Source: a bacterium
GTDB taxonomy: Bacteria > Fidelibacterota > Fidelibacteria > Fidelibacterales > Fidelibacteraceae
DNA: 64,000 nt
Assembly (NCBI GenBank): GCA_963676395.1
Contig: OY781066.1
Coordinates: 1,056,001 to 1,120,000 of the forward strand
Direction of reading: 5' to 3'
Shown here: piece after piece, positions 719-52,367 of the stretch
Layout of the letters: each line of letters starts with the position of its first letter
How positions within the stretch are numbered: position 1 is the first letter of the stretch
The notes under the pieces: model-generated
What the model saw: the letters and a program-made list of their open reading frames with translations, nothing else
What the model was told of the DNA's origin: nothing
The model's database searches: none
Position numbers and translations under genes: made by a program

Positions 719-1105
719 ATGCTAGAAGTCGTTGCCGGGATCATAATAAGTGATAAGGGTGTCCTGCTCTGTCAACGACATCATGATTCTCGTCGATTTC
801 CTTTAAAATGGGAATTCCCCGGTGGAAAAGTTGAAGCCGGGGAATCACCCTCTCATGCCATTGTTCGAGAATTGCATGAAGAGCTTGGAATAAATGTTAA
901 AAAAACCAAGCTTCTCTTCGACTATCAATTTGCCTACCCGAACGAGGAAGCTATTCATTTGTACTTTTATAATATTCTAAGCTACTCGGAAAAAATCCAA
1001 GATCTCCAATTTGAAAAAATTGAATGGGTCTCAGCTGAAAATCTTAAAGCATATGACATCCTTAAAGGTGACATGCCTTTTCTTGATCTATATTTTAATT
1101 TTTAA
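719..1105 (+). CDS. NUDIX (d)NTP pyrophosphohydrolase, MutT/NudG family
   Basis: WEFPGGKVEAGES...RELHEELG Nudix box. Confidence 0.9.
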   Translation: MLEVVAGIIISDKGVLLCQRHHDSRRFPLKWEFPGGKVEAGESPSHAIVRELHEELGINVKKTKLLFDYQFAYPNEEAIHLYFYNILSYSEKIQDLQFEKIEWVSAENLKAYDILKGDMPFLDLYFNF

Positions 1106-5342: not shown

Positions 5343-5786
5343 TTATAACTCCAATTCTCTGGGCGAACGGACCTCGATCCGACGCTCTTTATCATCAATA
5401 TACTCTAAATGCAATTCTATCGTATCATTCGGGACATGAGGTCCAATCTGCTCAGGCCATTCAATAAGCACAATACCGTCTTTTACCAGATACTCCTCAA
5501 AGCCCAGCATAATAATCTCATCAGGGTGTTTAATACGATAACAATCAAAATGAAAAATAGGAAGATCACCATAATACTCATTAATAAGCGTAAAAGTAGG
5601 TGACGTAGCTTCCTGATCGGCCTTTAAATATTCACACACACCTTTTGTGAATGTTGTTTTCCCCGCAGCAAGATCGCCCCAAAGTGTGATCACATCGTTG
5701 GCTTCCAGTAAAGCTGCAAACTTGCGACCAAAGGCTATTGTTTCTTCGGGAGACTCGGTTTTTATAATGTAAGTATGCTTTTTCAT
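5343..5786 (-). CDS. tsaE: tRNA t6A biosynthesis ATPase TsaE
   Basis: GDLAAGKTTF, SPTFTL, HFDCYR, LIEW. Confidence 0.96.
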   Translation of the reverse strand: MKKHTYIIKTESPEETIAFGRKFAALLEANDVITLWGDLAAGKTTFTKGVCEYLKADQEATSPTFTLINEYYGDLPIFHFDCYRIKHPDEIIMLGFEEYLVKDGIVLIEWPEQIGPHVPNDTIELHLEYIDDKERRIEVRSPRELEL

Positions 5787-7351
5787 CGTTTTGGACTCAA
5801 TTTTGCAACAGGTAGGATCATTTCATCCATGGAAATACCACCATGCTGAAATGTACCAGGATATTGTTTCTCGTATTTTTTTATATTGTTCGGATATAAA
5901 AAGAAATAATCGTCTTTAGCAAAGATATAAGTACTGGTCAAATTTGTTTGAGGCAATCTGTATCGGGCGGTATCTTTTACAAAAACCGCGGCTTTACTGG
6001 AGACAACTAAATTTCGTCCGCTTTTGTATCGAACCGAGTCTGTTGAATCTCGGTCAGCCTTTACAACTGACCCTTTGTTCACCCTGATACTACCATGATC
6101 CGAAGTGACCACAACTTCAAAACCTGCGTCTCCCGCTTCTTCTATAATACGACGAAGGTATGAGCCTTCCATCCAATTTCTTACAACATTTCGATAGCCG
6201 GCTTCATCCGGTACGATCTCCATTAATACATCGGAGGCCGAACGCTTATGCGCAAGAATATCCACAAAATTAGCAACCAAAACAATCAGATCATTATTCT
6301 TGATATCGGAAAAACGATTTGCAAGATTATCGCCGTATTTTGAATCGGATACTTTATGAAATGAATGTCCTTTTTTTAAATGTAATCTTTCTTTCCTTAA
6401 ATAATCGGTGATCAACTTATCTTCATAGCGGTTCATGCTTTCTTCGCTATCGGGATTTGCATAAAGATCAGGATATTTGACATTAATGGCATCCGGGTAC
6501 ATCCCGGCAAAAATTGCATTTCTAGAGTAAGGTGTTGCCGTAGGTAAAATTGAAATATGCGAATTCAATTCAACGTCAAATTGATTATAGAATAACGGTG
6601 CAACAGCCAACCAATGATCATACCTAAGACAATCGATTAGCACAAACAACGTTTTTTTCCCTTTTTTAAGAAGAGGACTGACAAACTTATCAAGCACCTG
6701 GGGTGACATAGGGACATCGGGCGAATGTTGTACCCAGTCTACATATTTATCACTAACCAATCGTTGGAATTCTTTGTTTGCGGATTCATGCAATTCATTT
6801 AAAAAATGTTCAAGATCATACTGAGTATTCTTTGCAAATTCTATACGCCAACTTGCGATCCTATCATGAATTGTAGACCATCGCTCCAATGAATTGATCC
6901 CTTCGAACAATTCCATAGTTACATTTTGGTAAAAGCTCATAAATTCGCGAGCTTTAACTTCTCGGGATATATCGGCTGAATCTAAATTCTTCTTTAAGGA
7001 CAATAAAACTTGCGAAGGGTTGATGGGTTTGGTGAGGTAATCAGATATTTCTTTACCAATCGCATCCTCCATCAAAGATTCTTCTTCGTTTTTTGTGATC
7101 ATGATCGCCGGCATACCGGGACGAAGTTCTCTGATTTTTTCCAGAACCGCTAAACCATCAAGCCCGTCCATCATTTCATCTAAAAGAGCGGCAGATACAT
7201 ATTCATGCTTAATAATTTCTAAAGCATCAACACCATTGGTCGCTGTTTTCACTTCGTATCCCTTTTCTTCAAGGAACATGATATGCGGACGCAACAATTG
7301 AATTTCGTCATCTACCCATAAAATCGTATGTTTGTTCGTGTTTTCTGTCAT
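5783..7351 (-). CDS. porX: PorX-like response regulator (receiver + PglZ/alkaline-phosphatase domain)
   Basis: ILWVDDE receiver; IDCLRYD, LPTATPYSRNAIF, TSDHG, FQHGGIS motifs; sits directly upstream of tsaE as in Bacteroidota. Confidence 0.88.
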   Translation of the reverse strand: MTENTNKHTILWVDDEIQLLRPHIMFLEEKGYEVKTATNGVDALEIIKHEYVSAALLDEMMDGLDGLAVLEKIRELRPGMPAIMITKNEEESLMEDAIGKEISDYLTKPINPSQVLLSLKKNLDSADISREVKAREFMSFYQNVTMELFEGINSLERWSTIHDRIASWRIEFAKNTQYDLEHFLNELHESANKEFQRLVSDKYVDWVQHSPDVPMSPQVLDKFVSPLLKKGKKTLFVLIDCLRYDHWLAVAPLFYNQFDVELNSHISILPTATPYSRNAIFAGMYPDAINVKYPDLYANPDSEESMNRYEDKLITDYLRKERLHLKKGHSFHKVSDSKYGDNLANRFSDIKNNDLIVLVANFVDILAHKRSASDVLMEIVPDEAGYRNVVRNWMEGSYLRRIIEEAGDAGFEVVVTSDHGSIRVNKGSVVKADRDSTDSVRYKSGRNLVVSSKAAVFVKDTARYRLPQTNLTSTYIFAKDDYFFLYPNNIKKYEKQYPGTFQHGGISMDEMILPVAKLSPKR

Positions 7352-42856: not shown

Positions 42857-44062
42857 TTACTCACCAATTTCTTTTCTCTGATATGTTTTTCCAAGTTCAA
42901 CAGATTGGCAATACTCAGAATTCCAACTTTTCTTAAATATCTCCGTCACGCGGTTTGCAAGCTGAGCGTTTTGAATAATGACTCCAAGATTACGTCCCTT
43001 GTAATAGTAACTCTTCGACCAATTGGATGTCCCCAGCCAAAACTCTTTGTCATCCACCACCATAAATTTACAATGTTCAACACGCGCATATCCAATATAG
43101 CCTTCGCTTGCTTCGGGAATGGTGGAAAATTTAATTTCAATATTTGGAATAGCATGCAGTGATTTTATGTAATTAATACGTGGTGAATAATAATTCCAAT
43201 CCGAGAGTATCATCTCAACCTCTACACCTCTGGCAGCCGCTTTGCGAAGTGCCACATCTAAAACGTCATAGTATTCCCCGCGAGAATAAGGAGAATAACT
43301 CAGCAGTTGAATATGAATACTTTCTCTCGCTTCATTGATCATCCGCAGCAATTGAAATTCATCCCAATTAGCTTCATGATAAATGATCTTAGGATTGCTG
43401 GCGCTAGGTATAATGGTTGTTTTACCATGCTCCGCTAATTTTAATCTGAACATTTTCATGTCATCCGAATATTCAATATTTGCAAGCAATGCCTCAGTAT
43501 CCGCGTCTTCTGCCGATAATAACCAGTCTAATTCAAAAAGCTCTTTATAAAATTTTACCAGATTTTTGCTTTTGATCCTGATCCCCAATTCATGAATATG
43601 CTTCAATGCTCGCCAATCAAAATTCTGCGAACCGATAAAGATATCTTTATTATCCACAATAAAATATTTAGCGTGCAATACACCACCGCTAATATCCTTT
43701 AAACGATAAACGTGCACGTCTATTCCCGAATGTTCATTCAGTTTATCCGCTGTTTCGGGATAAGTTTTATACATGCTTCCATCAACGATAAAGCGTATTT
43801 TTACACCACGATCTGCAGCTGAAACGATCGCATTTAGTATAGGTTCGAGTGCTTCACCTTTCTTGTGAGAAATATAAAATTGACCAAGATCAATAGAGTG
43901 CTTTGCAGCATTAATCATTTCCAACCATACCTCAGGCGTATTACGAATATCGGAATTATCCAAGGATGTCTCGATGGGAATACTCTCCACCAATTCGACG
44001 GATCCGGCCCAAAGTGCTGACATGCTCATAATGATCATCAATCCTTTAATAATAATTTTCAT
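42857..44062 (-). CDS. Secreted phospholipase D superfamily protein, PLD3/K4-like
   Basis: LVESIP, HAKYFIVD..GSQNFDWR and HCKFMVVD..GTSNWS; start ATG 44062 with signal peptide. Confidence 0.88.
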   Translation of the reverse strand: MKIIIKGLMIIMSMSALWAGSVELVESIPIETSLDNSDIRNTPEVWLEMINAAKHSIDLGQFYISHKKGEALEPILNAIVSAADRGVKIRFIVDGSMYKTYPETADKLNEHSGIDVHVYRLKDISGGVLHAKYFIVDNKDIFIGSQNFDWRALKHIHELGIRIKSKNLVKFYKELFELDWLLSAEDADTEALLANIEYSDDMKMFRLKLAEHGKTTIIPSASNPKIIYHEANWDEFQLLRMINEARESIHIQLLSYSPYSRGEYYDVLDVALRKAAARGVEVEMILSDWNYYSPRINYIKSLHAIPNIEIKFSTIPEASEGYIGYARVEHCKFMVVDDKEFWLGTSNWSKSYYYKGRNLGVIIQNAQLANRVTEIFKKSWNSEYCQSVELGKTYQRKEIGE

Positions 44063-44346
44063 AACAGATCCTTTTATTATGGTAAAATATATAAAGAAAT
44101 TAATGATTATCCAACCGAGTCGAAGCAGAAGGCAGCAGTTAGAAGTTAGAATTTTTAATAGAAAAGCGGAATCATAATTAAAGAATATGGTCACAAATTT
44201 ATAGAAGTCAGAAATCAAAACACATCACCTTCTTGAATTCATCAATTTCAACTCACGTTCATCCCATTGATTGTTCGATTACTCATCTTTAATCTTTTTT
44301 CTTTAATCTTACGAAAGTAAATTTACCATCATACAAAGGAGTCACT

Positions 44347-47701: not shown

Positions 47702-47789
47702 AACTACGAACATAACAAAAAGCTATAAAACTTGGACGTCTATCAGATAAAACAGACAGGACTAAAGTATTAAAGAGAAATAAACACAA

Positions 47790-47850
47790 TAAACAATACA
47801 TGCCATATTGGAGATATATACACAATAGGCATACACTAACGTTGTAAAAC
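47790..47850 (+). mobile_element. attI-like site / first cassette recombination point
   Basis: G^TTGTAAAAC at 47841 is the exact reverse complement of GTTTTACAAC at the cassette end (48788); upstream ATACAC direct repeats; no 131-bp attC body. Confidence 0.6.
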
Positions 47851-47865
47851 ATTAAAATGAGAGAT

Positions 47866-48786
47866 ATGAAATGGCCAAATGATAAAGAGTTTGCATTTAC
47901 GATAATAGATGATACGGATAATGCAACATTAGATAATATTGCTTCTGTTTATTCATTTTTAGCAAGTAAAAATATCAAAACCACGAAAACAGTGTGGATT
48001 TATCCTTCAAGAAATAATTTTACTGGGCAAACTATACAGAATGATGATTATTTTTCATTTCTTTTTAATTTAGAAAAGCAAGGATTTGAAATACAATTAC
48101 ATAATGTTGGAAGTGGAAAATTTAAACGTACAGAAATAATTGAAGGATTAAAAATATTCAAAGAAAAATTTGGAAGATATCCTAAAATGCATATAAATCA
48201 TTCTTCCAATCCAGATAATTTATATTGGGGTTATAAAAGATACGGTATTGTCCTAAGAAGTATAATTAAGTTGTTAAAAGGTAAAATAAGACGATTTTAT
48301 GGAGATGAAATTGAAAGTGAATATTTTTGGGGAGACTACTCCAAGGATAAGATTAAATTTATCAGAAATAGAGCTTTTAATGGTATTAACACTTTGAAAT
48401 ATGACCCTCGAATGCCATTTAAGGAAAAGCATAAGGAATATACTAACTATTGGTTTAGTTCATCTGATGGACATACAGTTGAGGAGTTTAATGATTTAAT
48501 ATCAAAATCTAATATAAACGAACTAAAAAGACAAAATGGTTTATGTATAGTTTATACTCATTTTGCTTCCGGGTTTATTGATTCTAATGGCAAACTAAAT
48601 GAAAGGTTTAAAGAAAATATAGAATATTTGTCAATTCAGAACGGATGGTTTGTACCTGCAAGTGAAATATTAGAGTATTTAATATCTCAAAAGAAAAAAG
48701 ACTATGTTAGCAGTTTTTATATTAATGTCTTGGATTTTAAATGGCTATCAAATAGGATTTTAAAGAAAATGAAATATGGACGATAA
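47866..48786 (+). CDS. Cassette 1: polysaccharide-deacetylase-like (NodB-fold) protein
   Basis: FAFTIIDDTD, GFEIQLH, HINH, VYTHF motifs; alternative start 47857. Confidence 0.6.
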   Translation: MKWPNDKEFAFTIIDDTDNATLDNIASVYSFLASKNIKTTKTVWIYPSRNNFTGQTIQNDDYFSFLFNLEKQGFEIQLHNVGSGKFKRTEIIEGLKIFKEKFGRYPKMHINHSSNPDNLYWGYKRYGIVLRSIIKLLKGKIRRFYGDEIESEYFWGDYSKDKIKFIRNRAFNGINTLKYDPRMPFKEKHKEYTNYWFSSSDGHTVEEFNDLISKSNINELKRQNGLCIVYTHFASGFIDSNGKLNERFKENIEYLSIQNGWFVPASEILEYLISQKKKDYVSSFYINVLDFKWLSNRILKKMKYGR

Positions 48787-48790
48787 CGTT

Positions 48791-48921
48791 TTACAACAAT
48801 AAATATACGTAATGCGGGGCGATTTGCTAAATTTAAACTTTGATACATTTAATAAACAAGGTAACGGTTAGATAGTAAGGAGCTTAGAAATCCCGCACTA
48901 CGCATATTCAAGCCGTTAGCG
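48791..48921 (+). mobile_element. attC site 1 (131 bp)
   Basis: R'' TTACAAC, arm AATATACGTAATGCGGG pairing with CCCGCACTACGCATATT, R' GTTAGCG. Confidence 0.85.
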
Positions 48922-48959
48922 GCAAGTTAAAGAGAAGACCCTGCAAAAAATGATGCATA

Positions 48960-50984
48960 TTGAAAAAGATTGATTTACATATTCATACTAAAGCTTCAAT
49001 TACAGATGCTGATTTTTCTTTTAGTTTAGATAAATTAAAAGAATATGTTGAAACTCTTAAAATAGATTGTATTGCTGTAACGAATCACAATCTATTTGAT
49101 TTGGAACAGTTTCAAGAGATTTTTAGAGAATTATCCTGTAAGGTTTTACCAGGTGTAGAAATAAACCTAGAGAAAGGGCATTTGTTGTTAATTTCGGAGA
49201 ATACGGAGCTTGAAGAATTTGAAAGTAAATGTAAAAAAGTTGAAATACTAATTGAAAATAAAGACGATTATATTTCTGTGGCTCAATTGACAGAAATATT
49301 CGGAGACTTGTCTAGATATTTGCTTATTCCTCACTATGATAAAGCAAAAGTTATTCGTCAAGAAACAATAGACGAACTAAGTAGTTACATTTCAGCAGGG
49401 GAAGTCGGTAGTCCGCGAAAATTTACATATTGCATTAAAAATCCACAAAGTTTAGTTCCTGTATTATTTAGCGATTTACGTTTTAAAGAAGAGATGACTG
49501 AGTTCTCTCCGCGCCAAACATTTATTGATATTGATGACACATCTGTAAGAGCCATTAAAATTTGTTTGGCTGATAAAGACAAAGTTTTTCTGACTGAATC
49601 AGAAGGTCATAGGTTTTTTCAAGTATTTGAAAATGGACAAAAGCTATCAAACGGACTAAATGTCATTTTAGGTAAACGTTCAAGTGGAAAGAGCTTTACA
49701 TTAAAAAGAATTTATAGGGATTTTGATAATGTAAAGTTTATTGAACAGTTCGAATTACTTGAAAAAAATGAAGAAAAGGATAAGAAAAGATTCAATGATT
49801 TGCTATCCACCAAACAAAATAGTGTTTCAGAGGAATATCTTAAAGAGTTTAAAGAGGTTGTCGATGATATTTTAAAGATTGACCATGTTGAAAATGAAAA
49901 GGCTGTTGAAAATTATCTTGATTCATTATTAAAAGTAGCTTCTGAAGAGGAAAAAAAGGATGTTTACTCAAAGTGTGCACTTTTCAATGAAAGTAAATTT
50001 ATTGAATCAGAAAATGAAGGTTTAAAAAGACTTATTGATTCAACCCAAATGTTAATTGACAACATTGAATATCGGGATATTATTGACAAACATGTATCAA
50101 AAGAGTCGTTACGAGAATTAATCATCGATTTGATTTTGAAATACAGAGAACTTCAAGAACTAAATCAAAAACAATTATGGGTCAACTCAATTATTTCGAA
50201 TATAAAAATAGAACTAAAGTCTAATACAGCCTATTCTTCGATTGACGAGATTGATTTTTATCAAATACAGTTTGATAAAATCAAACTATTAAAGTTTTCT
50301 GATATTGTTAGTAGCGTTAAGAAGGAAAGAATCATTAAGCAAAATGAAGTTAGGCGGTTTAAAATTGTAGCAAGCACAAAATTATTTAAAGGTGCTCAAG
50401 AACTTTTAGATAAAAGTGGAAAGAAGACTCGATTTAAAGATGCATTTGATAAATATGAAAATCCAATTGAATATTTAGATGAGTTAAAGCAAATTGAAGT
50501 ACTTCCTGAAACAGACTACTATAAGTATTTTATAGAAATAGAATACATGATTTTAAATGAACATGGAGTAGAGGTATCAGGAGGAGAACGTTCAGAATTT
50601 AATCTTTTAGAAAAAATTCAAAATGCTCATCACTTTGATATGTTGCTGATTGACGAGCCTGAATCCTCTTTTGATAATTTATTTCTTAAAAATGATGTTA
50701 ATGAACAGATTAAGGAAATTGCAAAATCAATGCCTGTGATAATTGTAACACACAACAATACTGTTGGGGCATCAATCCAACCAAATTATATACTTTATAC
50801 AAAAAGAGAGATTATAGATAAAAAAGCAGTTTATAAAATATTTTCTGGAAATCCATCTGACCCTGAATTAATGACAATTGATGGAGAAAAAATTGAGAAC
50901 TATGAAATCATGCTGAATTGTTTAGAGGCTGGGGATTCAGCTTATAATGAACGAGGAAAATCTTATGCAACACTTAAAGATTAA
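48960..50984 (+). CDS. Cassette 2: PHP phosphoesterase + ABC/SMC-like ATPase (Ppl/TrlF-related, candidate anti-phage)
   Basis: DLHIHT, TNHN, PGVE, PHY, FSD; Walker A GKRSSGKS, coiled region, SGGE signature, Walker B LLIDEPE, VTHN; TTG start. Confidence 0.85.
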   Translation: MKKIDLHIHTKASITDADFSFSLDKLKEYVETLKIDCIAVTNHNLFDLEQFQEIFRELSCKVLPGVEINLEKGHLLLISENTELEEFESKCKKVEILIENKDDYISVAQLTEIFGDLSRYLLIPHYDKAKVIRQETIDELSSYISAGEVGSPRKFTYCIKNPQSLVPVLFSDLRFKEEMTEFSPRQTFIDIDDTSVRAIKICLADKDKVFLTESEGHRFFQVFENGQKLSNGLNVILGKRSSGKSFTLKRIYRDFDNVKFIEQFELLEKNEEKDKKRFNDLLSTKQNSVSEEYLKEFKEVVDDILKIDHVENEKAVENYLDSLLKVASEEEKKDVYSKCALFNESKFIESENEGLKRLIDSTQMLIDNIEYRDIIDKHVSKESLRELIIDLILKYRELQELNQKQLWVNSIISNIKIELKSNTAYSSIDEIDFYQIQFDKIKLLKFSDIVSSVKKERIIKQNEVRRFKIVASTKLFKGAQELLDKSGKKTRFKDAFDKYENPIEYLDELKQIEVLPETDYYKYFIEIEYMILNEHGVEVSGGERSEFNLLEKIQNAHHFDMLLIDEPESSFDNLFLKNDVNEQIKEIAKSMPVIIVTHNNTVGASIQPNYILYTKREIIDKKAVYKIFSGNPSDPELMTIDGEKIENYEIMLNCLEAGDSAYNERGKSYATLKD

Positions 50985-51282
50985 TGATAACAAAGGGTTT
51001 TATCAAATAGAACCTAACCAATGGAAAGAGATTGATAAAATCGACAAGGAAGATTTGATGCTTTTATTGGATAAAGCAATAGAATCAGAGTTTGAAATGG
51101 ATAAATTTGAAGCTGATAAAATATCCAACAAAGCGCATTCTATAATTTATAGAAACCTTTATGAAAAATTCTCAGAATTGTCTGAAAACAAGAATAGATT
51201 TAAAGATGAAAGCGAATTATTGTACAAGAATGCTTTTGATAAATACAGCCAGATTGAGTCTAATGAAACTGATGAAGGATAA
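50965..51282 (+). CDS. Cassette 2: small acidic helical protein coupled to the PHP-ATPase
   Basis: GAGGA RBS before ATG 50965; overlaps the upstream gene by 20 nt; stop lies 8 nt before attC2. Confidence 0.75.
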   Translation: MQHLKINDNKGFYQIEPNQWKEIDKIDKEDLMLLLDKAIESEFEMDKFEADKISNKAHSIIYRNLYEKFSELSENKNRFKDESELLYKNAFDKYSQIESNETDEG

Positions 51283-51289
51283 AACCAGC

Positions 51290-51420
51290 TGCTAACACGC
51301 AATATACGTAAGCTGGGTGATGTAGCCAATCTAAGCCTTTGTACATTTATTCAAAATTACAGTGGTTTGATAAGTATTTTCTCCGAAATCCCAGCCTCCG
51401 CATATTGCCATCCGTTATAC
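51290..51420 (+). mobile_element. attC site 2 (131 bp)
   Basis: R'' TGCTAAC, arm GCAATATACGTAAGCTGGG pairing with CCCAGCCTCCGCATATTGC, R' GTTATAC; same length as attC1 and shares blocks with it. Confidence 0.85.
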
Positions 51421-51519: not shown

Positions 51520-51927
51520 ATGAACAACGAACAAACAATTAAACTCGTAATTAGCAGGCTTATTGAAGAAGGCAAATTGGATGTAGTCGAAAAATCATTT
51601 TCAAAAAACTATGTCGCCCACGCAGGAGAAAAAGAGTACAAAGGACATGATTTTATTAAAAATTTTGCCGAACAGCTTCATTCTGCAATTCCCGATATTA
51701 AAGTCGTAAAAGTTGAATTCCTGAATAAATCAGGAAATATTATAACGTGGCAGAGAATATTAAGCGGGACACATAAAAAAAATATGATGAGAATTCCTGC
51801 GAGTGGCAAAAAAGTAAAATGGATTGAAATGGTGGTTAGCCGTTTTGAAAACGGAAAGATTTCTGAAGAATGGATTGTCTCAGAACTTATGGGGCAATTA
51901 TTATTAAAAGCTCCTACAAAGAAATAA
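51520..51927 (+). CDS. SnoaL-like ester cyclase
   Basis: AIPD, GTH....IPASGKKV, RFENGKI.EEW. Confidence 0.85.
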   Translation: MNNEQTIKLVISRLIEEGKLDVVEKSFSKNYVAHAGEKEYKGHDFIKNFAEQLHSAIPDIKVVKVEFLNKSGNIITWQRILSGTHKKNMMRIPASGKKVKWIEMVVSRFENGKISEEWIVSELMGQLLLKAPTKK

Positions 51928-51965: not shown

Positions 51966-52367
51966 ATGGAATACTTGGGTTCTTGTTTATGCAAAGGAAT
52001 TAAATTTAAAGTTATCGGTGATTTTGAGAGTTTCTATTTATGCCATTGCAGATATTGCAGGAAAGACACCGGGTCTGCTCATGCGGCCAATTTATTTTCT
52101 ACAACAGCAAAAATAGAATGGATAAAAACGGAAACGGAAATTAAGATATTTCAACCGCATAAAAGCAATCATGTGAAGGCCTTTTGTACAAATTGTGGTT
52201 CCGCTCTACCTAATTTGCAAATGGATGGCAAACTTTTAGTCGTTCCGGCAGGATGTTTAGATACTGAATTAGAAAAAAGACCTAATGCACATATTTTCAT
52301 TTCAAATAAAGCAAGTTGGGATGAGTCGCTGGAAAAAATATATAAATTTGAACGTTTCCCAGAATAA
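51966..52367 (+). CDS. GFA (CENP-V) family zinc-binding protein
   Basis: GSCLC, CHCRYCRK.TG, FCTNCGS, HIF...KA.W. Confidence 0.92.
   Translation: MEYLGSCLCKGIKFKVIGDFESFYLCHCRYCRKDTGSAHAANLFSTTAKIEWIKTETEIKIFQPHKSNHVKAFCTNCGSALPNLQMDGKLLVVPAGCLDTELEKRPNAHIFISNKASWDESLEKIYKFERFPE

Follow-up and report, generated by a model that had tools for sequence, protein, structure and literature searches.

Two overlapping genes, here called A and B, were analysed in a stretch of 64,000 nucleotides from a bacterium of the family Fidelibacteraceae (assembly GCA_963676395.1, contig OY781066.1, positions 1,056,001 to 1,120,000 of the forward strand). This whole stretch is called the window, and coordinates refer to it. 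Gene A (48960-50984, + strand) encodes a protein of 674 aa and gene B (50965-51282, + strand) an acidic protein of 105 aa. Judged from profile matches, the pair is a member of PDC-M49, a two-gene candidate that is already catalogued in PADLOC. Motifs and fold comparisons showed A to be a putative PHP-family metal-dependent phosphoesterase fused to an SMC/Rad50-like ABC ATPase, the head of which is split by a helical arm. Both genes lie inside one gene cassette (48916-51414, + strand, 2,499 bp), and the evidence below supports A and B as a conserved, translationally coupled unit within it. It is likely, by analogy with other nuclease-ATPase systems, that the pair is a defence module in which A would sense foreign DNA, the PHP domain would degrade it and B would regulate the process.

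The assignment to PDC-M49 was made with PADLOC-DB v2.0.0. Protein A matched the model PDC-M49A (PDLC04680) with E 5e-293 and 971.8 bits, residues 1-674 aligning to profile positions 1-674 of 674. Protein B matched PDC-M49B (PDLC04682) with E 2.2e-37, residues 7-102 aligning to positions 1-96 of 97. Both models of PDC-M49 were thus matched, by genes that are adjacent on the + strand. The initial annotation, made from the letters of the window, had proposed the pair as a possibly new anti-phage system and had named a full match to a described two-gene system as the result that would remove the novelty. The novelty is removed, because both proteins match an already described two-gene candidate over their full length. 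For this window the observation was correct, but the system was already catalogued. What the initial annotation had described was confirmed: a PHP protein with Walker A, SGGE, Walker B and H-loop motifs that overlaps a small acidic protein with its own ribosome-binding site, the reading FSDLR in place of SDxH, and two genes forming a two-component unit inside one cassette. Checks of the small gene beside homologs of A, of defence genes in the neighbourhood and of the predicted complex also gave results in favour of that description.

PDC stands for "phage defence candidate" in PADLOC and M49 for multi-gene candidate number 49 (Payne et al., bioRxiv 10.1101/2024.01.29.577857). According to the main text of that preprint, PDCs were predicted from their embedding within BREX, DISARM or type I restriction-modification (R-M) loci, and 145 of them entered PADLOC without individual tests; PHP is not mentioned in this main text. 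Literature searches on PHP with ATPase and defence, and on integron with PHP, found no description of the A-B pair.

Protein A is laid out as a PHP domain (residues 1 to about 215), an ATPase head in two parts (about 228-270 and about 455-674) and a helical arm (271-453, encoded by 49770-50318, + strand). Pfam detected the PHP domain alone, with E 5.5e-8. An alignment of 25 homologs identified the PHP residues as H7, H9, D16, H43, E67, H74, H125 and D172. The set of ABC-ATPase motifs was complete, with Walker A G238KRSSGKS245, Q263, the signature S540GGERS545, Walker B D565-E566, the D-loop SSFD and the H-loop H598. In the AlphaFold model of A, with a mean predicted local distance difference test score (pLDDT) of 80, the arm of about 180 residues lies between the Q-loop and the signature. 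A sequence search for solved relatives of A returned only generic ABC transporters (E about 1e-3). With Foldseek, the N-terminal 200 residues matched the PHP domains of PolC, Pol III alpha and RNase AM, and the rest of A matched the heads of MukB, JetC (Wadjet), RecN and Smc2 (E 3e-5 to 5e-4). VIA-align gave the PHP domain a Z of 14.6 to the PHP phosphoesterase 2anu_B (root-mean-square deviation (rmsd) 3.2, 181 aligned) and of 11.9 and 11.4 to the RNase AM structures 9etk (rmsd 3.6, 182 aligned) and 7ug9. For the whole of A, its ATPase part matched generic RecA/KaiC P-loop folds at Z 11-12, a result that is non-discriminating for a model of more than 400 residues.

Residue and linkage counts were made over 80 related loci, numbered with the prefix L. 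H7, H9, H43, E67, H125 and D172 were retained in all 77 loci that could be scored, K244 in all 78, and D565, E566 and H598 in all 80; both active sites are therefore under selection. The last PHP motif of A reads FSDLR (residues 170-174), and R174 was invariant in the 25 aligned homologs. Across the loci, position 174 was arginine in 76 of 77 scorable cases, lysine in one and histidine in none, so the unusual reading is real and family-wide. Replacement of the last histidine metal ligand by arginine, and once by lysine, suggests that the third metal or phosphate site differs from that of the defence protein Ppl.

Such a change could also mark a different substrate. The PHP domain might act on RNA or on a nucleotide-derived small molecule instead of DNA, and the module would then work by RNA decay or signal turnover, in agreement with the structural neighbours of A, which include RNase AM (9etk, 7ug9) and PHP phosphoesterases of unknown substrate (2anu_B). 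This is very improbable. The closest sequence relatives are Ppl and TrlF, for which a single-stranded DNA exonuclease activity is reported in a review (PMC12904381), and the SMC/Rad50-like heads belong to DNA-binding machines in all matched structures.

The start of A was placed at TTG 48960, which is the first start codon past an in-frame TGA at 48951-53; the resulting N-terminus MKKIDLHIHT is common to all homologs in the alignment of 25. The open reading frame containing B (50947-51282) is 111 aa long. Its conserved start, M7, corresponds to ATG 50965 and gives a protein of 105 aa. The start of B was set there because the PADLOC profile for B and an alignment of 26 homologs both begin at this residue, and because a ribosome-binding site, GAGGA (50953-50957, + strand), lies upstream with a spacer of 7 nt, within the 3' end of A. 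The stop codon of A ends at 50984, and the two genes overlap by 20 nt. An identical 20-nt overlap is annotated in RefSeq on two plasmids, one from Rhizobium and one from Enterococcus, and in many of the 80 loci the first in-frame start of B falls at exactly that overlap position. B has an isoelectric point of 4.72, with 25 aspartate and glutamate residues against 16 lysine and arginine residues, and 24 of 26 B homologs have an isoelectric point of 5.2 or below.

A match to B was found directly 3' of A in all 80 loci by tblastn. The match was partial in L018 and L037, in the latter since the contig ends. In L018:8000-8719, from a Mucilaginibacter metagenome-assembled genome (MAG), B breaks off after some 45 residues, and its frame continues into a MarR-type regulator; this B is probably a decayed copy. 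Two longer proteins containing B were found. One of them, the metagenome protein P0121, is an A-B fusion of 771 aa, in which residues 1-673 share 49% identity with A and residues 672-769 share 38% with B. P0121 may have arisen naturally, by fusion of the two genes across their 20-nt overlap.

The model of B was confident (pLDDT 91) and shows three short strands, a helix at 28-40 and a long helix of 48 residues at 56-103. No solved relative of B was found by sequence, and structural searches likewise gave none: the best Foldseek E was 3.5, and in VIA-align, run against 48,161 chains, the best Z was 4.6 (rmsd 3.4, 73 aligned) and all matches were to long helices. Prediction of the A-B complex gave an ipSAE (interaction prediction score from aligned errors) of 0.68, compared with 0.00 for the best of three controls. 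In the calibration, 116 of 157 solved complexes attained the ipSAE mark, as did 2 of 215 mismatched pairs; these counts are approximate, custom alignments having been used. At least 92% of the contacts agreed between the runs, and the partner pLDDT was at least 80. In the predicted interface, residues 24-39 and 56-95 of B contact two stretches of the arm of A, helices 296-331 and 428-453, and the PHP and ATP catalytic sites are not touched. The prediction supports binding of B to the helical arm of A.

The cassette is delimited by two attC-like sites, each of 131 nt, whose G|TT crossover points fall at 48916 and 51414. The first, at 48791-48921 (+ strand), opens the A-B cassette and has the boxes R'' TACAAC (48792-48797) and R' GTTAGCG (48915-48921). 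The second, at 51290-51420 (+ strand), is the cassette's own site, with R'' GCTAAC (51291-51296) and R' GTTATAC (51414-51420). Both run from an AAC box through imperfect, bulged inverted repeats to a GTT box, and in both the bottom strand folds better. For site 1 the bottom strand gave -17.5 kcal/mol (z -2.41, 3 of 200 shuffles as good) and the top strand -15.5 kcal/mol (z -0.97). For site 2 the values were -17.5 kcal/mol (z -1.89, 10 of 200 shuffles as good) and -13.2 kcal/mol, and 16 of 19 arm positions were paired as judged by eye. R'' of the A-B cassette, GCTAAC at 51291-96, is complementary to the cassette's own first bases GTTAGC at 48915-20. In the upstream cassette, R'' TTTTACAAC (48789-48797) is the reverse complement of GTTGTAAAA. 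Complementarity between R'' and the first bases is characteristic of circular permutation in integron cassettes. The upstream cassette is opened by a short attC-like site at 47788-47847 (+ strand), with R' GTTGTAA at 47841-47847. This 60-nt AAC...GTT site has an arm duplex of -10.2 kcal/mol by script; it is weak, and its identity is inferred.

The attC sites were judged by hand and with a crude script for AAC...GTT arm pairing, without a curated attC model. Sites of -14 kcal/mol or below were found in 12 of 76 downstream and 11 of 73 upstream regions of A-B, compared with 10 of 144 control windows, so that the excess beside A-B by script is modest only. Strong script hits in L065, L076 and L077/78 were not counted as attC sites; they are short perfect palindromes and may be terminators. 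No consensus pairs emerged from RNAalifold when six attC-like sites had been aligned with MAFFT, the bulged stems being misaligned, and BLAST found no other copy of site 1 in its own genome. attC sites were recognised in three of the 80 loci, namely L004, L051 and L052. R' GTTAGCGG of site 1 is common to the site upstream of A in L051. The R'' region CCAGCTGCTAACAC of site 2 is nearly identical to CCAGCCGCTAACAC downstream of B in L004, the R'' region shared with L004 at this place being CCAGCnGCTAACAC. In L052:1259-11830, on the chromosome of an Acidaminobacter sp. MAG (Firmicutes), at least six near-identical attC sites of about 120-130 nt (ATAACACAGCAATTCCC...GGGAACGTTAT) delimit successive cassettes with PD-T4-7, then A-B, then PDC-S20. 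The locus resembles a collection of defence cassettes in an attC cluster of a Firmicute.

Around the A-B cassette, the G+C content is 30.1% in the segment from 47.5 to 52.5 kb, compared with 39.0% in the remaining window, and the low-G+C segment is flanked by genes for a degP-type protease and an 8-oxoguanine deaminase. The upstream cassette holds an open reading frame of 309 aa (47857-48786, + strand), which had no match in Pfam, PADLOC or NCBIfam. The rest of the low-G+C island comprises a SnoaL-like gene (51520-51927, + strand, Pfam SnoaL E 5.2e-24) and a GFA-family gene (ATG 51966 to 52367, + strand, Pfam GFA E 7.1e-24). No convincing attC site was found 3' of these two genes; the best AAC...GTT site after the GFA gene has -8.1 kcal/mol. 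The right end of the array is undefined, because no recognisable attC site follows the SnoaL-like and GFA genes. Farther away, the window contains three other PADLOC matches: PDC-S07 at 719-1105 (+ strand, E 6.7e-34), a PglZ-domain protein at 5783-7351 (- strand, E 2e-24) and a PLD/DrmC-like protein at 42857-44218 (- strand, E 1.6e-27). The latter two may be generic domain matches.

Relatives were sought in 185,579 species-representative genomes by an alignment-based scan; a query with the single protein A had found none. In this collection, 328 stretches encode a relative, and A-B is thus not a chance feature. The pair occurs in Bacteroidota, Firmicutes, Proteobacteria, Spirochaetes, Planctomycetota and candidate-phyla bacteria. 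The genomic context was studied in 48 of 53 loci with full flanks; L026, L027 and L029 were dropped as copies of L024, and L079 and L080 because of their size. The three nearest open reading frames of at least 100 aa on each side, 286 proteins in total, were scanned against PADLOC, and 49 other open reading frames of the window served as control.

A PADLOC neighbour at E ≤ 1e-19 was present in 26 of the 48 loci. Three loci (L006, L007 and L008) have hsdS on one side of the pair and hsdR on the other, within a type I R-M system, and parts of type I R-M systems are near A-B in L049, L053, L062 and L071. Type II and type III R-M genes were also found (L075, L024). Further neighbours were Shedu SduA (L001), Septu PtuAB (L057), PD-T4-7 with PDC-S20 (L052), AbiEii (L062), DpdF/PsyrT (L051), Csx27 (L034) and several other PDCs. 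In the control, three of 49 proteins matched at E ≤ 1e-19, these being the PDC-S07, PglZ-domain and PLD/DrmC-like proteins. At E ≤ 1e-40 the counts were 35 of 286 neighbours against 0 of 49 control proteins (Fisher p 0.0045). Where PADLOC neighbours are lacking, the pair often stands alone between housekeeping genes.

Loci with housekeeping neighbours only would suit another role. With the same domain logic of a phosphoesterase and a coiled-coil ABC ATPase, and with a head resembling RecN, MukB and JetC, A could be an accessory DNA-repair or recombination nuclease of the SbcCD or Mre11-Rad50 type, serving the host or a mobile element. Such a role is quite improbable, as the patchy spread over many phyla (328 stretches in 185,579 genomes) suggests horizontal transfer, R-M operons and defence islands harbour the pair, cassettes and plasmids carry it, and the arm is very short and without a hook.

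Homologs were found on 58 plasmid records, 45 of them from Enterococcus and nine from Staphylococcus, and 48 of the 58 are predicted to be conjugative or mobilizable. The plasmid homologs of A-B are 41-45% identical, for example in L119 (Enterococcus faecium pF39_1) and L120 (Rhizobium hidalgonense pPR19E03). They are annotated as "histidinol-phosphatase" or "PHP domain-containing protein" followed by "hypothetical protein", and are flanked by insertion sequence (IS) elements or, on the Rhizobium plasmid, by DUF4238 and AbiH genes. Homologs were also present on three viral contigs.

Carriage on cassettes, plasmids and IS-flanked DNA would also suit an addiction module, and chromosomal integron arrays often carry toxin-antitoxin cassettes. 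In an addiction (toxin-antitoxin-like) module, A would be a toxic nuclease, B its labile neutraliser, and the selected role of the pair would be to stabilise the carrier array or plasmid instead of defending against phages. The small acidic protein, translationally coupled to a larger enzyme and tightly bound to it in the predicted complex, would fit such a module. The gene arrangement does not: the enzyme gene comes first and the small gene starts inside it, which would favour co-production and give no excess of neutraliser. Moreover, B docks in the model on the arm, away from the PHP and ATP sites, the ATPase motifs are strictly conserved although a simple toxin would not need them, and many copies are chromosomal and lie between housekeeping genes. 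An addiction module is therefore considered unlikely.

The preferred reading of A-B is that of a nuclease/ATPase defence module, and the pair probably protects against phages. The mechanism was deduced from reports on the distant relative Ppl and on other Rad50-like defence ATPases. A would dimerise through its ATP-sandwiched heads and recognise foreign DNA, most likely by free ends or unusual structures, whereupon the PHP domain would degrade the recognised nucleic acid. B would be a constitutive regulatory subunit on the arm, which may either restrain the nuclease until infection or couple sensing to activation. Either the host or the mobile element carrying the pair would thereby be protected against phages or rival plasmids.

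Several observations weigh against this reading. Nuclease activity is not assured, because the last PHP metal ligand is arginine and not histidine, and the role of B is a guess, because B is without a structural relative. P0121 is a single sequence on one contig and could be a frameshift or an assembly error. No published experiment on PDC-M49 was found, and the name PDC-M49 was absent from the literature searched; a cold-seep study tested eight candidates, M49 not being among them. In the window, the neighbours of A-B are the 309-aa open reading frame, the SnoaL-like gene and the GFA gene, none of which is a defence gene. Among the 48 context loci, 16 had no PADLOC neighbour at E ≤ 1e-5, and six more had weaker hits only. 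Some of the counted matches are generic, such as mad2/mad3-type methylases or ATPases and a probable group II intron reverse transcriptase in L077. At E ≤ 1e-19 the excess of neighbours over control was not significant (44 of 286 against 3 of 49, Fisher p 0.12). From the neighbour counts and the control, the association with defence genes is therefore real but not universal. Finally, no integron integrase above the cut-off was found in the 2.34-Mb genome, where the best match to TIGR02249 scored 120.7 against 265 bits. This match lies more than 340 kb from the array and leaves profile positions 182-238 uncovered. The genomes of L052, L051 and L004 likewise had no integrase above the TIGR02249 cut-off. 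The array, a short attC cluster, therefore lacks an integrase.

Compared with PDC-M49 itself, no sequence difference was found, and A-B shares its type I R-M embedding context in three related loci. The carriage on a cassette, the docking of B predicted for the arm, the SDxR motif found throughout the family and the link to a TrlG-like gene, described below, go beyond the main text of Payne et al. Compared with the cassettes called BRiCs, as presented in the main text of bioRxiv 10.1101/2024.07.02.601719, A-B is alike in being a self-contained defence-type unit between attC sites, and two-gene cassettes are reported there; unlike them, the A-B array is chromosomal and has no integrase nearby. 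PHP and PDC are not mentioned in the main texts of bioRxiv 10.1101/2024.07.02.601719 and bioRxiv 10.64898/2026.03.17.712381. Integrons have recently come to be viewed as stores of defence genes, and the finding of A-B as a cassette next to others that carry such genes agrees with that view.

A has the same set of ABC head motifs, split by a helical arm, as SbcCD/Mre11-Rad50, OLD, Gabija GajA, Lamassu and Wadjet JetC, and by Foldseek its head is like those of MukB, JetC and RecN. The likeness to OLD, Gabija and SbcCD is drawn partly from the text of PMC13648713. In A the nuclease would be an N-terminally fused PHP domain, whereas theirs are Mre11, TOPRIM or other effectors, and the short arm together with a 105-aa partner of no known fold sets A apart from the SbcCD, OLD, Gabija, Lamassu and JetC machines. 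Sensing of DNA ends is described in the preprint PMC13648713 as a shared theme among Rad50-like defence ATPases.

The closest comparison is with Ppl and TrlF. Ppl is described in the review PMC12904381 as a single-gene system and a single-stranded DNA 3'-5' exonuclease that is released by depletion of nucleoside triphosphates and by 3'-OH ends. In the preprint PMC13648713, where it is cited as Gao_ppl, it is grouped with OLD and Gabija as a Rad50-like end sensor. Neither Ppl nor PHP is mentioned in the preprint text of Millman et al. TrlF has been described as the PHP protein of the Photorhabdus temperature-restriction locus trlR-trlF-trlG. TrlF-family genes were taken from 19 of 300 gammaproteobacterial genomes, and three of the proteins were scanned. 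They matched the Ppl model with E 3e-143, 6e-124 and 3e-29, and TrlF and Ppl are for this reason regarded as one family. The primary paper on the mechanism of Ppl is reportedly that of Xu et al. 2026 in Mol Cell.

The initial annotation had called the pair Ppl-related, which stands as far as architecture and distant homology are concerned; membership does not. A had no match to the Ppl model (PADLOC PDLC02208) even at E ≤ 10. It matched NCBIfam NF045780 (TrlF_fam_ATP) with E 1.5e-21 over residues 3-314 only, at 76.9 bits against a cut-off of 350. Conversely, one TrlF protein matched PDC-M49A in its PHP domain (E 1.3e-12). When the three TrlF/Ppl proteins were aligned together with four PDC-M49A proteins, the former had GSDxH and the latter FSDxR. 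Membership of A in Ppl/TrlF was ruled out by the lack of a Ppl match, the sub-cut-off TrlF score and the motif SDxR instead of SDxH. A is thus a shorter, distant cousin of Ppl/TrlF, with 674 aa compared with 871-1038 aa in the three TrlF proteins. Both have an N-terminal PHP domain followed by a Rad50-like ABC ATPase, and both probably share the same general working, that of a nucleotide-gated nuclease on DNA ends, by analogy with the accounts in PMC12904381 and PMC13648713. A has an obligate small partner in B, whereas Ppl has no such partner.

A further link is given by TrlG-type genes (SLFN_AlbA_2 with HATPase_c_4). They follow TrlF in the gammaproteobacterial loci L106:4095-5315 and L107:4214-5554, and homologs were also found by tblastn in the TrlF loci L103 and L108. 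With TrlG-type genes next to TrlF, the "single-gene" Ppl may therefore often belong to a two-gene locus in nature. A TrlG-like gene with a winged helix lies directly 3' of A-B in five loci, L024 (8293-9663), L025, L026, L027 and L029, four of which are identical in sequence. The TrlG-like gene after A-B in L024 is 24% identical to the gene after TrlF in L106 (E 1.5e-15).

If PDC-M49 defends its carriers, a compact, widely transferred nuclease-ATPase system would join the known set. It would also offer a natural comparison with Ppl, whose two enzymatic domains it shares but from which it differs by its altered metal site and by a subunit of its own that binds the arm. A more far-reaching idea, put forward tentatively and with some doubt, is that PDC-M49 could be a two-subunit branch of the Ppl/TrlF lineage, in which an arm-clamped acidic subunit and an arginine-remodelled PHP site replace built-in nucleotide gating, and which would be small enough, at 2.5 kb, to cross bacterial phyla as one integron cassette. 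If true, this would make PDC-M49 a portable, DNA-end-sensing immune nuclease with a regulation different in kind from that of Ppl.

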